Origin: Thermoplasmatota archaeon
GTDB taxonomy: Archaea > Thermoplasmatota > Penumbrarchaeia > Penumbrarchaeales > Penumbrarchaeaceae
Reading direction: 5' to 3'
Assembly: GCA_029762535.1 (NCBI GenBank)
Contig: JARVGK010000006.1
Span: 14,603-78,602 of the forward strand
DNA length: 64,000 bases
This document shows positions 1,279 through 41,354 of the stretch, in pieces. The notes below the pieces were generated by a model that saw nothing but the letters and a program-made list of their open reading frames with translations, was not told the origin of the DNA and ran no database searches. Positions within the stretch are counted from its first letter, which is position 1. Every line of letters starts with the position of its first letter. Made by a program: the position numbers and the translations under genes.

Positions 1279-4050
1279 TCATTCTTCATCTTTTGATCCC
1301 TTCCTCCTGCTTTTTAATATGAGAAAGAGCAGGAACCCAACAACGGCGATCAAAAAGACGGAGACCGTCAGTGAAGAGCATGCGATAAGGATTATCCCTC
1401 TGTCCCATGTCTCGGGATCCTGCGCCTCGCCATCCTCGGCCTCCACATCCAGGGTGAACTTATGCCATATGACGCTCTCCCCGTCCGTCGCCGTCAGATC
1501 CACGATATACGTCCCGGGGGCTGGATCCTGATACCTGATGATCCCCGACACGGACATGACGGTTATTCCGGACGATGGGGTGCTGGATATGGAATAGGTG
1601 ATCACATCGCCGGGATCCACGTCCAAGGCAAGGCATTCCGCCATGTAGTCCTGTCCCTCGCGAACGGTGGCATTAGCGGGCACGGTGAGCCAATACGGGG
1701 GATCGTTCACGTCGATGACATCAAGGCGGAACTCGATAATATCAAAACCCCCCTCCCCGTCCCTGACGGTGATCCTCAAATCGTATCTTCCGACATCATC
1801 GTTGGTCGGCACACCAGAGACCAGGTCATCTTCGAGAGATAACCATTCGGCATCCGTGACGAGTTCCCAGGTCAAGACCGTCTCCACCGGATCGATGTCG
1901 TAGGCCTCAAGGCGAAGGGAATATCGCTCGTCCTGTGATACAGAAGTAATCGGAGTGGTCGTTATCACAGGGGGATCGTTCACGTTCATCGCCTCCAGGG
2001 TGAAGTTCAGATGATCGTACCCTTCGTTACCGTCCTCAACTGTGACATTGACACAAAATATTCCGACATCGTCGTTCGTGGGAGTCCCGTTCAGGTAATC
2101 ACCTTCCAATGAGAGCCAGCCCGCATCCGTGGACACCGAGAACGACAGAATATCCCCGGTGGGATCCATGTCGTACGCCTCGAGATGAAGGGAATACATC
2201 TCGTCTTGAAGAACGCTCGTTATCGGTATGGTCGTTATCACCGGGGGATCGTTGACGTTCAATACATCCAATGTGAAGTTGAGGTTGTCCCATCCCCCGT
2301 TCCCGTCTTCCACGGTGATGTTCACCCAATAGGAACCGACATCTTCGTTCGAGGGAGTCCCGTTCAGGTAATTACCTTCCATTGAGAGCCAGTCGGCATC
2401 GGTGGATACCGAGAACGCCAGTACATCCCCGGTGGGATCTATATCGTAGGCCTCCAGATGCAGGGAGTACTCCTCATCCTGAAGAACACTAGTAACCGGT
2501 ACGGTCGTTATGACCGGAGGATCGTTGACGTTCACCACTTCCAGTACGAACGTCTTTGTGGTAACTCTTCCACCTGAGTCCTGTGCGTTGATGTTGATGT
2601 GGAAGGAGCCTACTTGTTCGTTCTCCGGGATGGCGCTCAGCGACCCTCCAGGCGAGATCGATATCCAATCGATTCCCGGATCCATCGACATGGTGAAGTT
2701 ATCGATCATTCCGGGGGTGTCGAATATTCGGACATGGGGAGACAGATCGAAAGAATAGGGTTCGTCCTCAAAGGCCGGGGGGATCCTCCCGATCGTGAAT
2801 ACGGGCGCATGCTCCGTCTCCCTCAGGAAGGGATAGCTTTCACCCTCAATGATATTCCATGTATCCACCATGTCCCAGGTGGATGAGGCGAACGTGGCAG
2901 AGCTTTTCATCAGGTACGTGCTCCTCCCGGCCCCCGAAGCGCTGGTGGTCCATCCGGATGTCTCGTTGTCGAAGAAGGAGTAAGGTGCGCCACCTCCGGA
3001 ACCGATCAGGCCTCCAGTGTGAGATCCGCCCGTTACCTTACCAACGCTGTAGCAGCGTGTCACGGTACTGCTTGTACCTACCAAACCTCCGACAAGATAG
3101 GTGCCAGTGACGTTCCCGGAGGCGTAGCAGTCGAAAACGGAGGAAGAGCTGAAGCCTATGAGACCGCCGATATCCGTTTTGGTCGAATAAACCTCCGAGG
3201 TCGAATAGCTCTTCCTGACCTGACTTGAATAAGAATAACCTATCAAGCCCCCGGTGAACGTTCCACCCTCCGCCTTTCCGGATGAACTGCAGAGCATAAC
3301 CTGACCGCTGGTGAGCTTCCCGATCAATCCTCCGACGTGATCGCCTGCGCTCCTGACGTCCGATCGGGAGTACGAACCCTCTATGATCCCGCCGGAGCCC
3401 TCCCCGATCAATCCTCCGATCGATGAACCGCCCGAACCATCCACCGTGCCCATCGCCGAGCATCCTTTCATACTTCCGGTGTTTAAGCCTACCAATCCAC
3501 CGCAGCGGGTCCTGCCCTTGACATCACCTATAAAATGAACGTTTACAAGCGTCCCCCTGTTGGTTCCGGTCAAGCCCCCTGCCGTGTTTTCACCCTCCAC
3601 GTAGGATACCTCCATCCTGAGGTTGGAGACCCTTCCGGAATCATCCACGTAAGCGAACATGCCCACATTGACAATGGATGAATCGTTGATGTAGAGTCCA
3701 TACACCGTATGGTTCCTGCCGTTTAGGGATCCCTCAAAAGGGTCCGTGGAGGACCCGATCGGCCTGAACCCCTTACCAGACCGCCATGCGACGGTCTCAG
3801 CGGCTTCGATGTCGTTCGCGAGAGCGTAATGGCCATCCAGGTCCTCCGAGATCATCTGAAGATGGGTCGCGTTCATAATTAGGTATGGATCTTCCATCGT
3901 CCCGGATCCCGATAGAGAGGACCATGCAATCGGTGCTAACTCATCAGGCGTATCGGCAGCTTGCAGGTTCGCCGATAGAAAAACCGTTCCAATTAACATA
4001 ACGAGCAATATACACATCGGCCTCATGGAAACGACCCGGCCTATTAGCAT
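1279..4050 (-). CDS. Cell-surface protein: GLUG-type repeats plus tandem Ig/cadherin-like domains and C-terminal TM anchor
   Basis: Signal peptide, GSGTxEDPYLI motif, many (V)GGLIG repeats, VNDPPVITT repeats, hydrophobic tail followed by KSRRK. Confidence 0.85.
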   Translation of the reverse strand: MLIGRVVSMRPMCILLVMLIGTVFLSANLQAADTPDELAPIAWSSLSGSGTMEDPYLIMNATHLQMISEDLDGHYALANDIEAAETVAWRSGKGFRPIGSSTDPFEGSLNGRNHTVYGLYINDSSIVNVGMFAYVDDSGRVSNLRMEVSYVEGENTAGGLTGTNRGTLVNVHFIGDVKGRTRCGGLVGLNTGSMKGCSAMGTVDGSGGSSIGGLIGEGSGGIIEGSYSRSDVRSAGDHVGGLIGKLTSGQVMLCSSSGKAEGGTFTGGLIGYSYSSQVRKSYSTSEVYSTKTDIGGLIGFSSSSVFDCYASGNVTGTYLVGGLVGTSSTVTRCYSVGKVTGGSHTGGLIGSGGGAPYSFFDNETSGWTTSASGAGRSTYLMKSSATFASSTWDMVDTWNIIEGESYPFLRETEHAPVFTIGRIPPAFEDEPYSFDLSPHVRIFDTPGMIDNFTMSMDPGIDWISISPGGSLSAIPENEQVGSFHININAQDSGGRVTTKTFVLEVVNVNDPPVITTVPVTSVLQDEEYSLHLEAYDIDPTGDVLAFSVSTDADWLSMEGNYLNGTPSNEDVGSYWVNITVEDGNGGWDNLNFTLDVLNVNDPPVITTIPITSVLQDEMYSLHLEAYDMDPTGDILSFSVSTDAGWLSLEGDYLNGTPTNDDVGIFCVNVTVEDGNEGYDHLNFTLEAMNVNDPPVITTTPITSVSQDERYSLRLEAYDIDPVETVLTWELVTDAEWLSLEDDLVSGVPTNDDVGRYDLRITVRDGEGGFDIIEFRLDVIDVNDPPYWLTVPANATVREGQDYMAECLALDVDPGDVITYSISSTPSSGITVMSVSGIIRYQDPAPGTYIVDLTATDGESVIWHKFTLDVEAEDGEAQDPETWDRGIILIACSSLTVSVFLIAVVGFLLFLILKSRRKGSKDEE
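1712..2531 (-). repeat. Three tandem ~273-nt intragenic repeats (91-aa Ig-like units)
   Basis: ggatcgtt(g/c)acg recurs near 1700, 1973, 2246 and 2519; the protein units VNDPPVITT...GxPxNxDVG are highly similar. Confidence 0.85.
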
Positions 4051-30699: not shown

Positions 30700-32940
30700 C
30701 TATATCGAGTCAATAATGGCATTGTAGGTCTGGCTAGGCCTCATGGCCCTGGATGCCATATCGTCATCCGGCTTGTAGTAGCCGCCTATGTCCACGGGAT
30801 GTCCTTGGGCCGCGTTAAGCTCCTGCAATATCTTATCCTCGTTCCCCTCGAGCTGTTCTGCCACGGGTGTGAATATACTCTTCAGCTCGGGATCGTCATT
30901 CTGATCCGCAAGCTCCCTTGCCCAGAACATGGTCAGGTAGAAATGGCTGCCCCTGTTGTCTATCTCGTTGACGTCTCTACCGGGCGACCTATTGCTCTCG
31001 AGGAACCGACCGTTGGCCCTATCCAGGGTTTGGGACAGAACTCTAGCCTTTTCGTTCCCGGTCCTGTTGGCCAGGTGCTCGAGCGATGCCGATATGGCAA
31101 GGAACTCACCCAAAGAGTCCCATCTGAGATGACCCTCATTGAGGAACTGCTCGACGTGTTTGGGAGCGGAACCTCCCGCACCCGTCTCGAATAGACCTCC
31201 GCCGTTCATCAACGGCACGATCGAGAGCATCTTTGCGCTTGTGCCCACCTCTAGTATCGGGAAAAGGTCCGTGAGATAGTCCCTAAGGACGTTCCCAGTC
31301 ACGGAAATAGTGTCCTTTCCCTCCTTTATGTACTGGCATGAGAACCTGGTGGCCTCGTCCGGAGACATTATCCTTATATCGAGCCCTGTCAGATCGTATT
31401 CTTTCAGATATTCGTTCACTTTTTTGATCAATTCCGCATCGTGGGGCCTTTTCTCGTCAAGCCAGAACACGACAGGGAGCTTCGTATCGATGGCCCTGCC
31501 CACAGCTAATTTCACCCAGTCCTTGATCGCCGGGTCCTTGACCTCGCACATCCGGAAGATATCGCCCTTCTCCACATCCTGCTCCATCAGGACCTCGCCA
31601 GAGGAGGCGACTAGCCTCATCTTTCCGTCGCCTGGTGCCGAGAAGGTCTTATCATGGGACCCGTACTCCTCGGCCTTCTGGGCCATGAGGCCGACGTTCT
31701 GGACAGACCCCATGGACCTGGGGTCGAAAGCACCGTTCTGCCTGCAGAAATCGACGACGGCCCTGTACACCCCGGAATAGCTGCTGTCAGGGATCACGAA
31801 CTTTGCCTCTTTAAGTGTCCCATCCTTTCCGTACATCCTACCACCTGCCCTGATGGCTGCGGGCATGGAGGCATCGATTATGACATCGCTCGGGACGTGG
31901 AGATTGGTTAGGCCCTTATCCGAGTTCACCATGGCCAGCTCTGGACCTTTGGCATACACCGCCTCGATGTCCTTCACTATCTCCAACCTCTTCTCCTCAG
32001 GTAGCGATGCGATCTTTGTGTATAGGTCTCCTAGTCCGTTGTTGGGGTTGATCCCAAGCTCCTTGAATATCACTTCATGCTTCTCGAATACGTCTGCGAA
32101 GAAAACGGAGACAACGTGTCCGAATATAATAGGGTCGGACACCTTCATCATCGTCGCCTTCAGATGGATAGAGAACAGTACCCCCATCTCTTTAGAGTGC
32201 TCTATCTGCCCCCTTATGAAATCCCTGAGGGATCTCACGCTCATGTGAGATGTATCGACGATCTCCAGGGCAGGCAGCTTCATATTATCCTTGAGGACCT
32301 TGACATCGCCGTTATCTCCAGTATATTCTATCCTTGCCTCCATGTCCGAGTCTATCGTCAAAGACCTCTCGTTCGACCTGAGATCCCCGGATGCCATGCT
32401 GGATACATGCGCCCTGTTATCGGGTTTCCATTCAGCCATGGAATGCGGGTGCTTCCTCGCATAGTTCTTTACGGATGCCGGGGCTCTCCTATCTGAATTC
32501 CCTTCTCTCAGGACGGGATTGACCGCGCTGCCTTTTATCTTATCATAGACGGTCTTTATCGTCCTTTCCTCATCGTTCTTGGGTTCATCTGGATAATCCG
32601 GCAGGGCGTACCCTTTGCCCTGCAGCTCCTTTATCGTCGCTTTTAGCTGTGGTATCGACGCGCTTATACACGGGAGCTTGATAACGTTCGCTTCGGGCAT
32701 TTTGACAAGCTTCCCCAGCTCTTCCAGGTCATCGTTGATCCTCTTGTCCTCGCTCAGATGGTCGGGGAACTTGGCTATCGTCCTGCCGGAGAGCGATATG
32801 TCCCTGGTCTCCACCTTCACTCCCGCGGCTCCCGTGAACGCTTTGATCACGGGAAGCAGCGAATAGGTCGCAAGCGCCGGGGCCTCATCGACCCTGGTGT
32901 ATATTATCCTGTTTCCATCAATTCTCTCTTCGTTCGACAT
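30700..32940 (-). CDS. icd: Monomeric NADP-dependent isocitrate dehydrogenase
   Basis: [64 protein letters not shown]. Confidence 0.96.
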
Positions 32941-34570
32941 CCTTTTCCTCCTTTTCAGCGAATACCGCATCATCGTAGTATCTTGGTTCGACGTTCCTTA
33001 CCACATCTATGATGGTCCCGTCCCTGTATTCGATCAAAGCAACGATCTCATCTCCCCAGTTAGGTTCGACCTTGGTCTGGGTTATCTCGTAGGCCTGCCT
33101 TTGAAGGTCCTCTATGGTCGTTATCTTCATGTCCCGGGGTATCTTGACCGAAGCGAGCTTTTCAAGAAGGTCGATCCTTCGCGGGTTCATCGCTATGCCC
33201 CGCTCTGTCACGACGACGTCAATGTTCTCTCCAGGGGTCACCACGGTGTTGACCCTGTCGACCACGACCGGATACCTTCCTCTGAAAAGAGGGACGGTCA
33301 ATATCGTCAGGCTAGCTCCGGCCGCGGTGTCCGAGTGCCCTCCGACGGGCTCGGCTATGATGCCGTTGGACATCGTGACCGAATTAACGTTATAATCCAG
33401 ATCCACCTCGGTCGCGCCCAGGACGACTATGTCCAGCTTGTTGACGGTACATCCTCTCCCATGTATGTTGGCGTATGCTCCGATAGGCAGGTCAACGTGG
33501 ATCTTGGGGTTCTCCTTCATGTTATGTATGGCGGCCACATCGAATGCCTGGCCCGTGATGAGTTTCTTCACTGTCCCATCGAGGAGCATCTCGACAAGGA
33601 ATTTCGTGGTCCCGCCCTGGGCCCAGGCGGCCTTCACCCCCTTTTCCTTCATCCTCTGATGAAGGAATTCCGTGAAAGCAAGCGAGATCCCCCCGGCCCC
33701 CGCTTGAAAGCTCATCCCCTCCTTGACGTAACCCAATAGGTCCGCGATCCTCATCGCGTCCTTGGCTATCTTGAGCCTGGTGGGCGAGTTGGTTATCCTG
33801 AGTTCGCCTGAGGCGATCTTGTTCGGATCCCCTATCTTGTCCACGACGACCACGTAATCTACCAGCTCCTGGCCGATGGACATGGGGAAGTTGGGATATT
33901 CCACAAGATGGTCCGTCACTGCGATAACATGGTCGGCGAAGTGAGCATCGGCATAGGCGAAATTGATCGTACCGCAAGCTGATGGGCCGTTGATCGCGTT
34001 GAGATTTCCCAGTTCATCTGCGGATGGTGCTCCTATGAAGGCCACATCCACGTGTATGTCACCGGCCTCGATCGCCCGGACCCTTCCCCCATGGGACCGG
34101 ATCCTCATAGGTTGGTTGAGATATCTTCCTGAGCTTACGAGCCTCCCGAACTCGCCCCTTGCGGAACCGCCTTCGACCTTTTTGATCGTCCCGTTCATTA
34201 TACATCGGATTATTGCCTCCTCCTGGCAGGGGAATGTGGATGAGGGGGCAAGGATGAGGTCCTTTATTCCCTTCCTCTCGATCTCCGCAAGGACCATGTT
34301 CATCACATGGTCCCCGTTCCTGAAATGGTGGTGGAAGGATATGGTCATGCCGTCCTTCAACCCGATCTTTTCCATTGCCTCGCCAAGTGTTTTCACAACC
34401 TCGTTCTCCTCGGAGGCAACATATCCGAGCTTGGGTCCGTACTTATGGTCCTTGACCGGCCTGTGGGCGAAGGGACCTTTGTAAGGTATCAGCTCCACAC
34501 CATCGATGGACCTCGGGACCTTTCTACCCAGGGAGTTCTCCACCCACTCCACATCCGAGATCTTCACCAT
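32918..34570 (-). CDS. citF: Citrate lyase alpha subunit (citrate CoA/ACP transferase)
   Basis: [49 protein letters not shown]. Confidence 0.94.
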
Positions 34571-37907: not shown

Positions 37908-39062
37908 ATGAAGAACTTGAACGATGCTGAGAGAACGGCCCTGTTCGGTCTCGTGACATTTCCCGATCTCAACGACATGGACCTCTCACAACGTTTCTCA
38001 ATGAAGTATTCCACATTCGCCTCGGCCAAGAGTCGCGTGATCGCAAAGGGATTCGTCGATGAGTACTATCTGCCCGTATTCCCTAGGCTTGGCTTCGAGC
38101 TATTGGCGACCGTATATACGGATTTCAACCCTGCTGTGACTGTGGAGGAACGCGTCAAGAACACGATAAAGCATGTAGAGGTCTATCCCGAGATGGTTTT
38201 TTCCCTCGGAGAGTCACACAGGGGTTTCTCGATATCGATCGCTGAGAACGTCACCCGCGTCATGAGGATATCACTCGAGAGGATCAAGTTGTTCGCTGAG
38301 CTGAACCTTCTGGAGATCGAGCTTCCCACGGAGATAATGCTTCCGTTCGAACTCTCGAACATTCATAGGTACTTCAACCTCTCACCACTGATCAATCTTA
38401 CTTACTCCACCACGGGCAAGAGCGGGTCGGAGCTTTCCAAGGAATTCTCCATCCCCCGAAGCGATCTTCTTTTTGGGGATTCGATTATGCAGGTCAATCC
38501 TAAAAACGAAAGATCGCAAGAGGACGATCTCTCCAGGGTGGAAAAGGAGCTGATGTACTATATAGTGAAGTACCCTCAACTATCGGCGGCAAAGCTCGCG
38601 AACATCGCCCCCTATTCTAGGCATACGATATCAAAGGTGAGGGAGGACATGCTGTATCGGGGTCTTCTAACCAAGCAGGTCATTCCGAACCTCAATGTAC
38701 TAGGATATTCCATACTCTCCCTGTTCCATGCCCGGATCGATCCAAGCAAACCCATAGATCCATCGACATGCAACCGGAGAGAGATCCTCCAGGATGAGAC
38801 CGTGTTCCTTGTCAGTAGGCCGACCGAGCTTTTGATGCTCGCCGTTTACGAGGATTACGTACATTACAACAAAGGCATGGGTGCTTTCATCCAGTTCCTC
38901 AAGTCAGGGAACTACATAACCAAGATCCCGACGATAAGGAACCACTCCCTCAAAGAGGCGATCATGATCAAGAGGTTCCAGTACCATGAGCTCCTGAGAC
39001 AGAGGTTCTCGCTCAATATCAAAGATGGTCGAGATACCAATATCGATGATCATCTCTCGTGA
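37908..39062 (+). CDS. Transcriptional regulator with two tandem Lrp/AsnC-like wHTH modules
   Basis: Two similar units, LNDAE..P...LS......ST....KGFV....P....LGF and LSRVE..P...LA......HT....RGLL....P....LGY. Confidence 0.7.
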   Translation: MKNLNDAERTALFGLVTFPDLNDMDLSQRFSMKYSTFASAKSRVIAKGFVDEYYLPVFPRLGFELLATVYTDFNPAVTVEERVKNTIKHVEVYPEMVFSLGESHRGFSISIAENVTRVMRISLERIKLFAELNLLEIELPTEIMLPFELSNIHRYFNLSPLINLTYSTTGKSGSELSKEFSIPRSDLLFGDSIMQVNPKNERSQEDDLSRVEKELMYYIVKYPQLSAAKLANIAPYSRHTISKVREDMLYRGLLTKQVIPNLNVLGYSILSLFHARIDPSKPIDPSTCNRREILQDETVFLVSRPTELLMLAVYEDYVHYNKGMGAFIQFLKSGNYITKIPTIRNHSLKEAIMIKRFQYHELLRQRFSLNIKDGRDTNIDDHLS

Positions 39063-39106
39063 TCATCAAACACTCTTAACAGATATCATTTGGTATTAAA
39101 ATCACA

Positions 39107-39333
39107 GCAGAGTTTGGCATATTGATTTACATACCTCTGCCCAACGGTGACGTGAATTTGACGCTCCGTTGGGCTTAGAACATGCCAATGTAATTGGCAG
39201 GTTAGGTGAAATAACATCAGTTATTTTACGACTATTTCGAAGTCCCGTATCATATCGATCTTGACGCAAGGGACTTACGAAAAAACCCGATTTTCATTAT
39301 TTGTTGTGAGCCTCTGGCTCATGAGGGTTTTTT
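39107..39333 (+). ncRNA. Candidate structured non-coding RNA (5-6 consecutive hairpins)
   Basis: Stems read by eye at 39139-39174, 39179-39203, 39206-39229, 39235-39282 and 39281-39333. G-U pairs favour the + strand; ends in a U-tract. Confidence 0.5.
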
Positions 39334-39334
39334 A

Positions 39335-40096
39335 TCAAACATCGAGCTCGATCCCGACCGGGCAATGATCGGAACCCGTTACTTCTTTTAATATGAACGC
39401 GTCATTCAACTTTGGCAGCAACACCTCATCTAAGAAGAAATAATCTATCCTCCAGCCGATGTCGCGCTCTCTGGCCCTGGTCTTGTAATCCCACCAGGAA
39501 TATGATACCTCTTCGGGATGCGTATGCCTGAAGGAATCAAAAAAACCCGAACCTATGACCTTGTCTATCCACTTCCTCTCGATGGGGAGGAATCCGGATA
39601 TCTTTTCGTTCTCCTTCGGCCTGGCCAGATCGATCTCGTTATGGGCAGTGTTCACATCGCCGCAGAACACCACTGCCCTACTCTTCCTGTATTCCAATAT
39701 CCTCTCCAGGAAAGCCTCGTAGAAATCCAACTTGAACCTCAATCTCTCATCGCCCTGTTTACCATTGGGGAAGTATGCATTGAAGAGTATGAATTTCTCG
39801 TGATGGGAGATCACAAGCCTTCCCTCCCGATCTAAACTCTCGATCCCCAATCCGTATTCCACCTCTAAGGGTTCGTCCCTGGACCATGTGCTGACGCCTG
39901 AATATCCCTTCTTTTCTGCGGATGTAAAATACTTTTCAAAACCTTCAAAGTCAAGTATCACCGGGTCCAGCTGCTCAGGACGGGCCTTGGTCTCTTGTAT
40001 GCAGAATATGTCCGGTCCGTCCTCTTTGATGAATTCGAGCATGCCCTTGGATGCCGCGGACCTGATCCCGTTGACGTTCCACGATAAGAGCCTGAT
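39335..40096 (-). CDS. xth: Exodeoxyribonuclease III / AP endonuclease
   Basis: SWNVNGIR, QETK, YFPNG, GDVNTAH, WRIDYF, SDHCP. ATC 40096 proposed as start (TTG at 40150 is the alternative). Confidence 0.93.
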   Translation of the reverse strand: MRLLSWNVNGIRSAASKGMLEFIKEDGPDIFCIQETKARPEQLDPVILDFEGFEKYFTSAEKKGYSGVSTWSRDEPLEVEYGLGIESLDREGRLVISHHEKFILFNAYFPNGKQGDERLRFKLDFYEAFLERILEYRKSRAVVFCGDVNTAHNEIDLARPKENEKISGFLPIERKWIDKVIGSGFFDSFRHTHPEEVSYSWWDYKTRARERDIGWRIDYFFLDEVLLPKLNDAFILKEVTGSDHCPVGIELDV

Positions 40097-40100
40097 CGGA

Positions 40101-41354
40101 TCACCTCTTCTTGCGGGCCTTGATCTCGACGCTCGGGCTGAGATCGACAACGCTCTGACCCCTTACCAGGTCGTCGGGTATGGGCTTCTCCTTCTCGGAT
40201 ACGAGATCTGGAAAGAGGGTGTTCAATTTCTTTGTTTCGAAGGGGCCCGAACGTAACAGCTTCGGAGGGTCCGTGCTCATATCGAGCACCGTATGGCCTA
40301 TGCCGTAATGGGTAGGCCCTCCATCAACGGCTATTGTCACGGTTTCCCCCAGTTGCTTGAGCGCCTCCTGCATTGTAGAGGGTGGAGGCTGCCCATGGAT
40401 GTTCGCAGAAGTGCCACATATCTCTATCCTCTCCATCACCGCTTTCATGAAGATGTTCTCACCGTCGGCTAGAGAGACGGTCTTCAGATTGGATGTAACA
40501 TAGTCGGGCACCCGTTCCTTCTTCTTTATGAATATAATGGATATCGGCCCGTCCAATTCGTTCTCCAGCAATGCCATGGTTCTGTCATCGATCTTCGCGT
40601 AATCCGTGAAACGGCTTCTCGGGACTATCATGGTCAGAGGCATGTCCTCTCCGCGTTTCTTCATCGCGTAGATCCTCTTGATGGCCTCCGGACGTTTTAT
40701 TGAGGCGAAAAGCCCATAGGTTGTATCGAAGGGACCTAAAAGGACCTCCCCTCGATTCAACATCTCGACCACGGTATCGACATATTTTTCCTTTGCCGGA
40801 AATATCTTCACCTTTTCAACCTCCTTCATTCTATCATTGTCCTTGAAAGGTCTGCTCATCTCCGATATACCGCCCTTCTCTATAAGAAGGGGAAATAGTC
40901 CGCCTTTTTCGATAATATCCATTATGAAACCTTGAAGCGGGGGCAGCGGCGAATCCCAACCCTTGGTGATATTATGTAACCTGTTATCCTCTATCAGGAC
41001 GCTGTCACCGTCAGAGCAAGCATCGGGAAGGTCGGGGTCCTCGTAAAGCGGTATGCCGAGATTTATCAGGTTCCTCTTCATTATAGGGGCTATTGACTTG
41101 GCAATGACCGCTTTTATTCCCAGGAACCTCATGGCGTTTGAGGCATGCTCTCTTGAGGACCCCTTGCCGAAGTCCTCACCGGCGACGATCACATCGCCTT
41201 CTCTGACCCCGGAGGCGAACCCAGGATAATCCTGCTCAAGGCAATGAAGGGAATAATCCTCCTGTGGAAGATGCAGATACCTCGTAGGGGCCAGCGCATC
41301 GGTATCGATATTATCCCCCAAAAGCCATATCCTTCCCTTTGCGATCTGTTTCAA
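40101..41354 (-). CDS. Fusion: LeuD/HacB isomerase small subunit + YrdC/Sua5(TsaC)-like domain
   Basis: aa 1-160 carry NIDTD, FGKGSSREHA, RNLINLG, GGL; aa ~176-390 carry PFDTTYGL, KKR, TSAN, DGG, LRSG. Confidence 0.85.
   Translation of the reverse strand: MKQIAKGRIWLLGDNIDTDALAPTRYLHLPQEDYSLHCLEQDYPGFASGVREGDVIVAGEDFGKGSSREHASNAMRFLGIKAVIAKSIAPIMKRNLINLGIPLYEDPDLPDACSDGDSVLIEDNRLHNITKGWDSPLPPLQGFIMDIIEKGGLFPLLIEKGGISEMSRPFKDNDRMKEVEKVKIFPAKEKYVDTVVEMLNRGEVLLGPFDTTYGLFASIKRPEAIKRIYAMKKRGEDMPLTMIVPRSRFTDYAKIDDRTMALLENELDGPISIIFIKKKERVPDYVTSNLKTVSLADGENIFMKAVMERIEICGTSANIHGQPPPSTMQEALKQLGETVTIAVDGGPTHYGIGHTVLDMSTDPPKLLRSGPFETKKLNTLFPDLVSEKEKPIPDDLVRGQSVVDLSPSVEIKARKKR

Follow-up and report, generated by a model that had tools for sequence, protein, structure and literature searches.

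The locus examined here raises the question of what a 272-nt gap densely filled with hairpins is doing between two convergent genes of a Thermoplasmatota archaeon. The window (the whole stretch of DNA analyzed, 64,000 nt) comes from an assembly of 102 contigs that is 93% complete (G000) and in which McrA is absent. An earlier note, made from the sequence alone, had seen in the gap a back-to-back array of hairpins and a candidate novel ncRNA. The flanking genes, the hairpins (P1 to P4), and the dinucleotide that precedes them are positioned as follows.

37908..39062, + strand: upstream flanking gene, 384 aa, from the ORF list, without a Pfam match
39090..39091, + strand: TT directly 5′ of the element, in a short T-run (39089-39091); proposed core dinucleotide or target remnant
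39092..39135, + strand: P1 hairpin, GGTATTAAAATCA / TGATTTACATACC; 5′ strand 39092-39104, 3′ strand 39123-39135
39139..39174, + strand: P2 hairpin, GCCCAACGG / CCGTTGGGC; passenger module, supported by covariation
39179..39203, + strand: P2a hairpin, long form only; pairs 98:104 (AU/UA) and 99:103 (UA/CG) change on both sides across genera
39206..39229, + strand: P2b hairpin, long form only; pairs 117:146, 119:144, and 122:141 change on both sides
39235..39282, + strand: P3 hairpin, TTTCGAAGTCCC / GGGACTT-A-CGAAA; passenger module, conserved loop motif TTGACGCAA
39281..39333, + strand: P4, outer stem A6CCC / GGGT6; corresponds to the reverse complement of an IS left-end tip
39290-39297, + strand: P4 internal ATTTTCAT, inverted repeat of the element 5′ tip
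39306-39322, + strand: P4 inner hairpin, followed by GAGGG and a T-run at 39323-39333
39335..40150, − strand: downstream flanking gene, xth-like, of the exo/endonuclease/phosphatase family (PF03372, E = 2e-26)

The stop codon of the upstream gene lies at 39060-39062 and that of the xth-like gene at 39335-39337. The element begins 29 nt beyond the former and is separated by 1 nt from the latter, such that it occupies 39092-39333, or 242 nt of the gap. Without this segment the two stop codons would be ~30 nt apart, comparable to other convergent pairs in the window, and the gap is indeed as anomalous as the earlier note had held. G+C content at the element locus is ~40% vs. 53% for the genome. 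A perfect 8-bp palindrome (GATGATCA...TGATCATC) is found at 39045-39067, across the stop codon of the upstream gene and just 5′ of the element. Elsewhere in the window (1889-2434) there are two tandem 273-nt units with 78% identity (repeat family D1), the length of which is a multiple of three and may reflect a repeated protein domain.

Rfam 15 gave no match at the gathering score over the whole window, the best sub-threshold matches being to miRNA and snoRNA models at chance level, and ARAGORN detected neither tRNA nor tmRNA in it, in keeping with the original impression that tRNA, SRP, and RNase P signatures are lacking. Readings as a K-turn, C/D or H/ACA RNA, group II intron, or IS200/IS605 element were rejected, the defining motifs being absent from the sequence. 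A coding element was likewise rejected: the open frames occur in several frames of the four long copies described below, are truncated differently in each, and are incompatible with the compensatory changes. None of these frames is long or constant among paralogues, and the indel that distinguishes the short and long forms interrupts them; no transposase is encoded inside the element.

Conserved Structure of the Element

The gap folds at −85.4 kcal/mol compared with −58.4 ± 4.7 kcal/mol for dinucleotide shuffles (z = −5.78; 0 of 200 shuffles as stable), and its minus strand folds almost equally well (z = −5.57). The stems that made up the proposed array (39139-39174, 39179-39203, 39206-39229, 39235-39282, and 39281-39333 with 39306-39322) can all be read in the sequence, and comparison with relatives has shown that five of the six stems described are kept by compensatory changes. 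The pairing of GCAGAG with CTCTGC (39107-39140), also put forward as a stem, is not the conserved one, since the conserved 5′ hairpin is P1. Similarly, a TATA-like TATTAAA near 39094 falls inside the 5′ strand of P1, which corresponds to the right-end tip of an IS (see below), and provides no evidence of a promoter.

The short-form consensus, derived from 16 copies in six genera, consists of P1, P2 (closed by CCC/GGG), P3, and P4, with 95.6% of cells paired and 17 pairs changing on both sides vs. 6.4 ± 1.6 in shuffles. In a control in which the partners were slid by 1-3 columns, only 1-4 pairs changed on both sides and 35-49% of cells were paired. Such double changes are seen at pairs 1:45 and 9:37 of P1 (short form) and at 109:141, 111:139, and 112:138 of P3. 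The 5′ strand of P1 reads GGTATGAAGAT in most copies, and the motif TTGACGC is conserved on the 3′ side of the P2 loop, with GACG invariant or nearly so in the short-form alignment (A2). The window copy is of the long form, which has P2a and P2b in addition, and both of these covary.

The assertion that G-U pairs favor the + strand could be upheld only in part. Variable positions contain 14 G-U cells vs. 12 A-C cells, which is weak evidence of strand, and the sole feature favoring the + strand is an invariant tandem U-G/G-U in the inner stem of P4. P4 provides a hairpin followed by a T-run on either strand, with a terminator-like match on the + strand. Because A6CCC...GGGT6 can be read in this way in both directions, termination of both flanking genes was probably left intact by the insertion.

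Copy Number and Distribution

The gap contains one copy of a repeat rather than a unique new RNA gene. Four long copies are present in the window's genome (that of the window and those on contigs C8, C47, and C20); they are 84-89% identical and align from ...TTT|GGTAT to GAGGGTTTTTT, with unrelated flanks. A profile search of the genome contigs additionally detected three short-form copies (C102, C12, and C7), which are without the two middle hairpins, and several 3′-end fragments. The suspicion of a MITE-like repeat, which the earlier note had proposed to settle by genome copy number, is thus borne out by seven full copies plus fragments in this genome and, using covariance model R1, by 1-48 copies per genome, often in tandem, in 22 of the 23 family genomes. 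The repeats are multi-helix units of 195-260 nt, and the window copy is distinguished from its paralogues by a 6-nt deletion, a variant repeat (AAAAT/ATTTT), and a degenerate CTATGTTG. All copies in the window's genome are intergenic, between unrelated genes in all orientations, and no orientation bias with respect to neighboring ORFs was found (13 vs. 9 upstream, 10 vs. 12 downstream). The repeat also accounts for several "hairpin-dense intergenic" stretches in this genome. Solitary P4-type ends in which P1-P3 are not recognizable are found at C16:5886-5954, C44:530-579, and C32:22886-22950 of the same assembly, and may represent remnants of other element variants or decayed IS copies.

In a pattern scan of 185,579 species genomes, matches were obtained in Thermoplasmatota MAGs alone, and viral contigs gave no match to the conserved 3′ pattern. 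Outside the family, model R1 matched one of 14 other genomes of the class; this genome (G028), from another family, contains ten matches (e.g., L081:228-369 and L082:214-358) and the 13 others none. Such a patchy distribution would be in line with horizontal spread. Synteny between genera is seen for some copies (L016/L017 and L022/L036), and part of the element family is therefore old.

Orthologues of the upstream gene, with 46-55% identity, can be detected in 22 of the 23 family genomes. In none of these 22 relatives, in 11 of which the neighborhood was also compared, is the gene adjoined by an xth-like gene or by the element. Synteny around the upstream gene has been lost, and no empty site for the window copy could be obtained in the 11 relatives; a second comparison, in genus g5, found the locus rearranged.

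Relationship to an IS110-Family IS

When the flanks of all copies were compared, a solitary P4 module on contig C22 was found to adjoin a conserved 412-aa ORF that carries the DEDD_Tnp_IS110 (PF01548) and Transposase_20 (PF02371) domains. This is the sole IS110-family transposase gene in the assembly; it is located outside the window and forms part of the following IS.

G000:C22, ~31912-33421 (L068:1471-2980; same coordinates in L067): IS110-family IS, apparently intact, with a 412-aa DEDD transposase, a 244-nt left end, and a ~25-nt right end

Read in the orientation of the element, the C22 IS starts at ...ATATATTT|GGTATGAAGATAGGCGTGTGGA, preceded by TTT, and continues with the reverse-complemented transposase gene and the 244-nt non-coding stretch, ending in ...GGCTCATGAGGGTTT| (also written ...ATCTTCATGCTATGTTGTGAGCCTTGGGCTCATGAGGGTTT|). 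The P4 module lies at its transposase-proximal tip. Rfam gave no match on this IS, and a (TATAA)n microsatellite of ~10 units directly flanks its right tip (L068:1420-1470).

The short copy on C102 is identical to the IS at 14 of 14 nt of the 5′ tip and at 40 of 41 aligned positions of the 3′ tip (97.6% over 41 nt), and between the tips the two have nothing significant in common. The window copy matches the 3′ tip at 27 of 29 nt (93% over 29 nt); its 5′ tip is more diverged and is tied to the IS through the family alignment. In the C22 IS there is a 19-bp inverted repeat with arms placed 3 nt from the right tip and 32 nt inside the left one; 8-11 bp of this repeat are retained in the element between the P1 5′ strand and the P4 internal loop. 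The 5′ strand of P1 corresponds to the reverse complement of the IS right-end tip, and its 3′ strand is the inverted partner. The repeat arms covary (A2 columns 9 and 165, 8 GC : 8 AU), and the complementarity and covariation between the P4 internal loop and the element 5′ tip are those looked for in a bridge-RNA loop but equally those of a DNA inverted repeat. The C102 copy retains 21 of 23 nt of the IS right-end inverted repeat with its pairing partner missing, as expected of a deletion derivative.

Two more IS copies with the same tip architecture are found at unrelated loci in G015 and G018, encoding transposases 79 and 41% identical, respectively, and in both genomes an element abuts the IS left tip directly (GAGGGTTT|GGTATGAAG). 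More distant metagenome relatives of the IS have kept the left-end layout AAACYYTCATGA-hairpin-...CATGAAAAT. A search of 24 family genomes (draft MAGs) detected the cognate transposase in four; the other IS110 transposases of genus g3 form a separate clade whose ends are unrelated and which has no element in its vicinity. About 50 nt to the left of the IS copy in G015 (L069:250-345, contig C108) are almost identical to the left flank of a long-form element in the same genome (L010, contig C47; GTAAGTATGTGCATACATACATAWTATAAATGTTTATGGTCCTATCTTTTT); the explanation is either a target that is itself repeated or a mobile unit that extends further to the left. In G018 (L087, contig C95), a mini form of ~90 nt abutting the IS left tip has no parts other than a P1 hairpin with perfect pairing (GAAGATTCGGTG / CACCGAATCTTC) and an end resembling P4, and is the simplest deletion-derivative form of the family.

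The left ends of the three IS contain a long-range stem maintained by compensatory change (GAUGGCAAAGGA / UCCUUUGCCAUC vs. GGUUGGUGAAGGA / UCCUUCACCAACC), as well as a hairpin with a U-run on one side and an A-run on the other, as would suit an oligo-T/A target. A further left-end segment is identical to the right tip plus its flank and changes together with the tip, being AUACCAAA, AUACUAAA, and GUACCAAA for tips ...ATACC|AAA, ...ATACT|AAA, and ...GTACC|AAA, respectively. By analogy, this segment resembles the donor guide of IS621. It is situated on the 3′ side of its hairpin, and either the guide wiring differs from that of IS621 or the assignment is incomplete. On these sequence features the left end of the C22 IS is a candidate archaeal bridge RNA.

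Target Site and Proposed Origin

The base preceding the element (position −1) is T in 26 of 26 copies, that at −2 in 25 of 26, and that at −3 in 19 of 26; a summary count gives TT before 26/26 elements, and before the three IS copies there are three to five T residues. At their other end, elements carry GGGTT(T)n, in which the element's own TT is not distinguishable from that of the target. The fixed dinucleotide TT is therefore present on both sides of the elements and there is no longer target duplication, the pattern described for IS110-family insertions, which are bracketed by their core dinucleotide alone (PMC11208160, PMC12288879); this points to an oligo-T tract with a TT core as the likely target. 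A GC-rich hairpin was also considered as a constant feature 5′ of the element and rejected, as 25 copies showed no enrichment over random windows of the same loci (Mann-Whitney p = 0.65) and only a subset carries one. One presence/absence comparison is available among the relatives: a copy on G008:C63 is absent from the orthologous 156-nt spacer of a sister species (G013:C55), the flanking genes being 70-71% identical, a level of identity (~70%) at which the spacer is not alignable base by base.

The segment 39092-39333 is thus very probably a MITE-like non-autonomous derivative of an IS110-family IS, analogous to MITEPpu9/ssr9. What it would retain of the IS are the tips alone, namely the 5′ tip (GGTAT.AA.AT), corresponding to the IS right end in reverse complement, and the last ~45-70 nt (P4), corresponding to the IS left end in reverse complement, together with the short inverted repeat inside both tips, with passenger hairpins in place of the transposase gene. 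In the simplest reading, a mini element made up of tips alone would have picked up P2-P3 as its passenger, much as ssr9 is carried by MITEPpu9. Since the left-end RNA of the IS is missing from the mini element, mobilization would depend on an IS in trans: the DEDD recombinase of an autonomous copy, such as that on C22, and its guide ("bridge") RNA from the 244-nt left end would recognize the shared tips, excise the element as a circle joining the 3′ tip ...CTCATGAGGGTT to the 5′ tip GGTATGAAGAT (junction GAGGGTT-GGTATG), and insert it at a TT core inside an oligo-T tract. At the window locus the target would have been an oligo-T tract in the ~30-nt spacer between the two convergent genes. We infer mobilization in trans, guidance by RNA, a TT core, and any present-day activity of this system from the sequences compared. 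The window copy itself, with AAAAT/ATTTT where the resident IS has AAGAT/ATCTT and with its degenerate CTATGTTG, may be beyond mobilization by the C22 IS, and its diverged tips suggest that it is probably a decaying relic. The original proposal of a novel ncRNA holds insofar as the fold is conserved and non-random; the locus is not a single-copy RNA gene, and would instead be a MITE-like repeat with IS110-family termini. Counting against this model are the detection of the cognate transposase in few of the family genomes (4/24, although these are draft MAGs), the differences between the tips of the window copy and those of the resident IS, and the existence in genus g3 of arrays of P2-P3-type units that are without IS tips.

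Alternative Explanations

IS tips around a cargo are topologically identical to an IS inserted into a host repeat, and the element could accordingly be a REP-like structured repeat of the host that serves as a landing pad, the IS having split a repeat copy whose halves now pass for its "tips". Repeated palindromes such as REP/BIME are typical targets of IS110-family elements (PMC12288879; PMC11208160), the 19-bp inverted repeat around the transposase gene can be read as a split P1 stem, and the elements are far more widespread than the transposase. Against this, both outer tips are present in each of the three IS copies, which occupy unrelated loci and whose flanks, starting at TT, are likewise unrelated, and the passenger hairpins flank IS copies only as a separate, complete element. 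The left-tip hairpin moreover diverges with the transposase, GAGCC/GGCTC having become GGGCC/GGCCC in the IS with 41% identity although the elements of that genus keep GAGCC. The left-end RNA segment tracks the outer right tip plus flank, matching it and covarying with it, and the C102 copy keeps the right-end repeat arm with its partner missing. A landing pad is hence judged quite improbable.

Alternatively, the copies could be small RNA genes acting in trans, a family with many members in which a promoter 5′ of each would drive + strand transcription that stops at the P4 terminator, the likeness to the IS being secondary. Maintenance of five to six helices by compensatory change, conservation of the loop motifs and of a single-stranded stretch, closure of the + strand by a terminator-like hairpin and T-run, and the synteny of some copies between genera would all be expected of such genes. 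Conservation, however, begins exactly at the P1 tip with no conserved promoter upstream, the minus strand folds equally well, G-U vs. A-C cells at variable positions give no strand signal, and the copies show no orientation bias with respect to neighboring genes. Numbers ranging from 1 to 48 across sister genomes, tandem arrays, presence or absence at an orthologous site, and tips held in common with an IS also argue against small RNA genes, an explanation to which we attach very little probability.

A locus-specific cis element, acting either as a regulator in the 3′ UTR or as a bidirectional terminator dedicated to the convergent pair, would suit the position between two stop codons and the hairpin and T-run of P4 on both strands, but is scarcely credible given that the same element occurs between unrelated genes in every orientation and that the upstream-gene orthologues of 22 relatives are followed by neither the element nor xth.

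Three further classes were compared. The window element is not encoded next to a recombinase gene, as an IS110 bridge RNA or seekRNA would be; the only IS110-family transposase of the assembly is on C22. A classical TIR-type (DDE) MITE would not have one repeat arm terminal and the other ~35 nt inside the 3′ tip, nor lack a duplication beyond TT. A PATE or omega-RNA mini of the IS200/IS605 type is discounted by the absence of a PF07282 (TnpB-type) match from the 93%-complete genome and by ends that match an IS110-type element.

The Passenger Hairpins

Conservation within the family is highest in P2 and P3, each of which carries UUGACG on the 3′ side of its loop. They have no similarity to the interior of the resident IS, and the cargo shows no complementarity to the IS of the kind that Ssr9 has to Asr9. 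Inspection of their loops by eye as target or donor guides, in ~26 copies, gave no match to the tips or flanks. In genus g3, where there are up to 48 covariance-model matches per genome, tandem arrays have been observed (L079:200-700 in G013:C27; L078:100-780 in G002:C175) in which the unit comprises a variable AT-rich hairpin followed by a P2-type and a P3-type hairpin with AATTGACGA loops. The g3 arrays lack the IS-derived P4 end. One of them directly follows a tRNA-Met-like sequence (by eye) and another a terminator-like GC hairpin with T8. The passenger module evidently leads a life of its own, which the IS110-derivative model does not explain.

It is conceivable, if on balance doubtful, that P2/P3 represent an undescribed structured RNA (or single-strand DNA) module exploiting the IS110 machinery. 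Such a module could act as a decoy or alternative scaffold that binds the DEDD recombinase, or could be an RNA of the protein-sponge type hitch-hiking on a miniature transposon. Should P2/P3 prove to be a functional RNA, the family would provide a family-wide archaeal case of an RNA spread by RNA-guided recombinases.

Relationship to Known Systems

The closest parallel is MITEPpu9/ssr9 of Pseudomonas putida KT2440, which is mobilized by the IS110-family ISPpu9 and for which mobilization, circles, and transcription have been shown experimentally (Pares-Guillen et al., NAR 2025, PMC12288879); the window element, by contrast, is known here from its sequence. Both are protein-less, are bounded by the left and right ends of an IS110-family IS, and contain structured non-coding cargo; both families occur next to the IS and alone elsewhere, include tandem duplicates, and have a fixed dinucleotide on both sides (AG in MITEPpu9, TT in the window element). 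They differ in that the window element has an archaeal host (Thermoplasmatota MAGs) and extends through a whole family at 1-48 copies per genome, in the position of IS-linked copies (on the left-end side of the IS vs. downstream of tnp in MITEPpu9), in the target (an oligo-T tract vs. REP), and in a cargo that is unrelated to ssr9 and not complementary to the IS. A full-text literature search found no other IS110-derived MITE besides MITEPpu9, nor any in archaea. Archaeal IS110 recombinases themselves were already known.

The layout of the C22 IS is similar to that of the IS621/IS110 group with its bridge RNA (Durrant et al., 2024, PMC11208160; Hiraizumi et al., 2024, PMC11208158), with which it shares a DEDD recombinase, a long structured left end (244 nt) and short right end (~25 nt), a core dinucleotide only, and RNA segments matching its own end. 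Unlike IS621-type elements, the window element contains neither a recombinase nor the left-end RNA of the IS, and its P2/P3 hairpins have no readable guide-target or guide-donor match. The C22 IS also departs from the IS110 group in possessing a 19-bp inverted repeat, a trait used in defining the IS1111 group. As in IS1111-group elements (IS4321/IS5075, PMC11208160), the inverted repeat is subterminal, its length being 19 bp in the parent IS and 8-11 bp in the element; however, the arms in the C22 IS lie at 3 and 32 nt from their respective tips, and it is the left end that is long and structured, whereas IS1111 elements have a short left end and a long, RNA-carrying right end.

Other short repeats also provide parallels. 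PATE-type IS200/IS605 minis with omega-RNA scaffolds are likewise protein-less mini-transposons of archaea with structured RNA-like content. REP, BIME, and REPIN sequences are also short, hairpin-forming, multi-copy, intergenic, and IS110-associated, although a REP is a single palindrome of 20-40 nt and the repeats described here are 195-260-nt multi-helix units with IS tips. REPs are mobilized by RAYT (Y1) transposases and serve as targets of IS110 elements.

As a derivative of an IS110-family IS, the element would indicate that the RNA-guided recombinases of this family gave rise to abundant protein-less derivatives in a family of uncultured sediment archaea. The element family offers a natural data set in which donor ends are accompanied by a simple target (TT/oligo-T) and by a parent IS whose left-end RNA can be read, and which could be used to test donor recognition in trans by archaeal bridge-type recombinases. 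Its chief interest lies in the conserved passenger hairpins and in this clean set of donors and targets.
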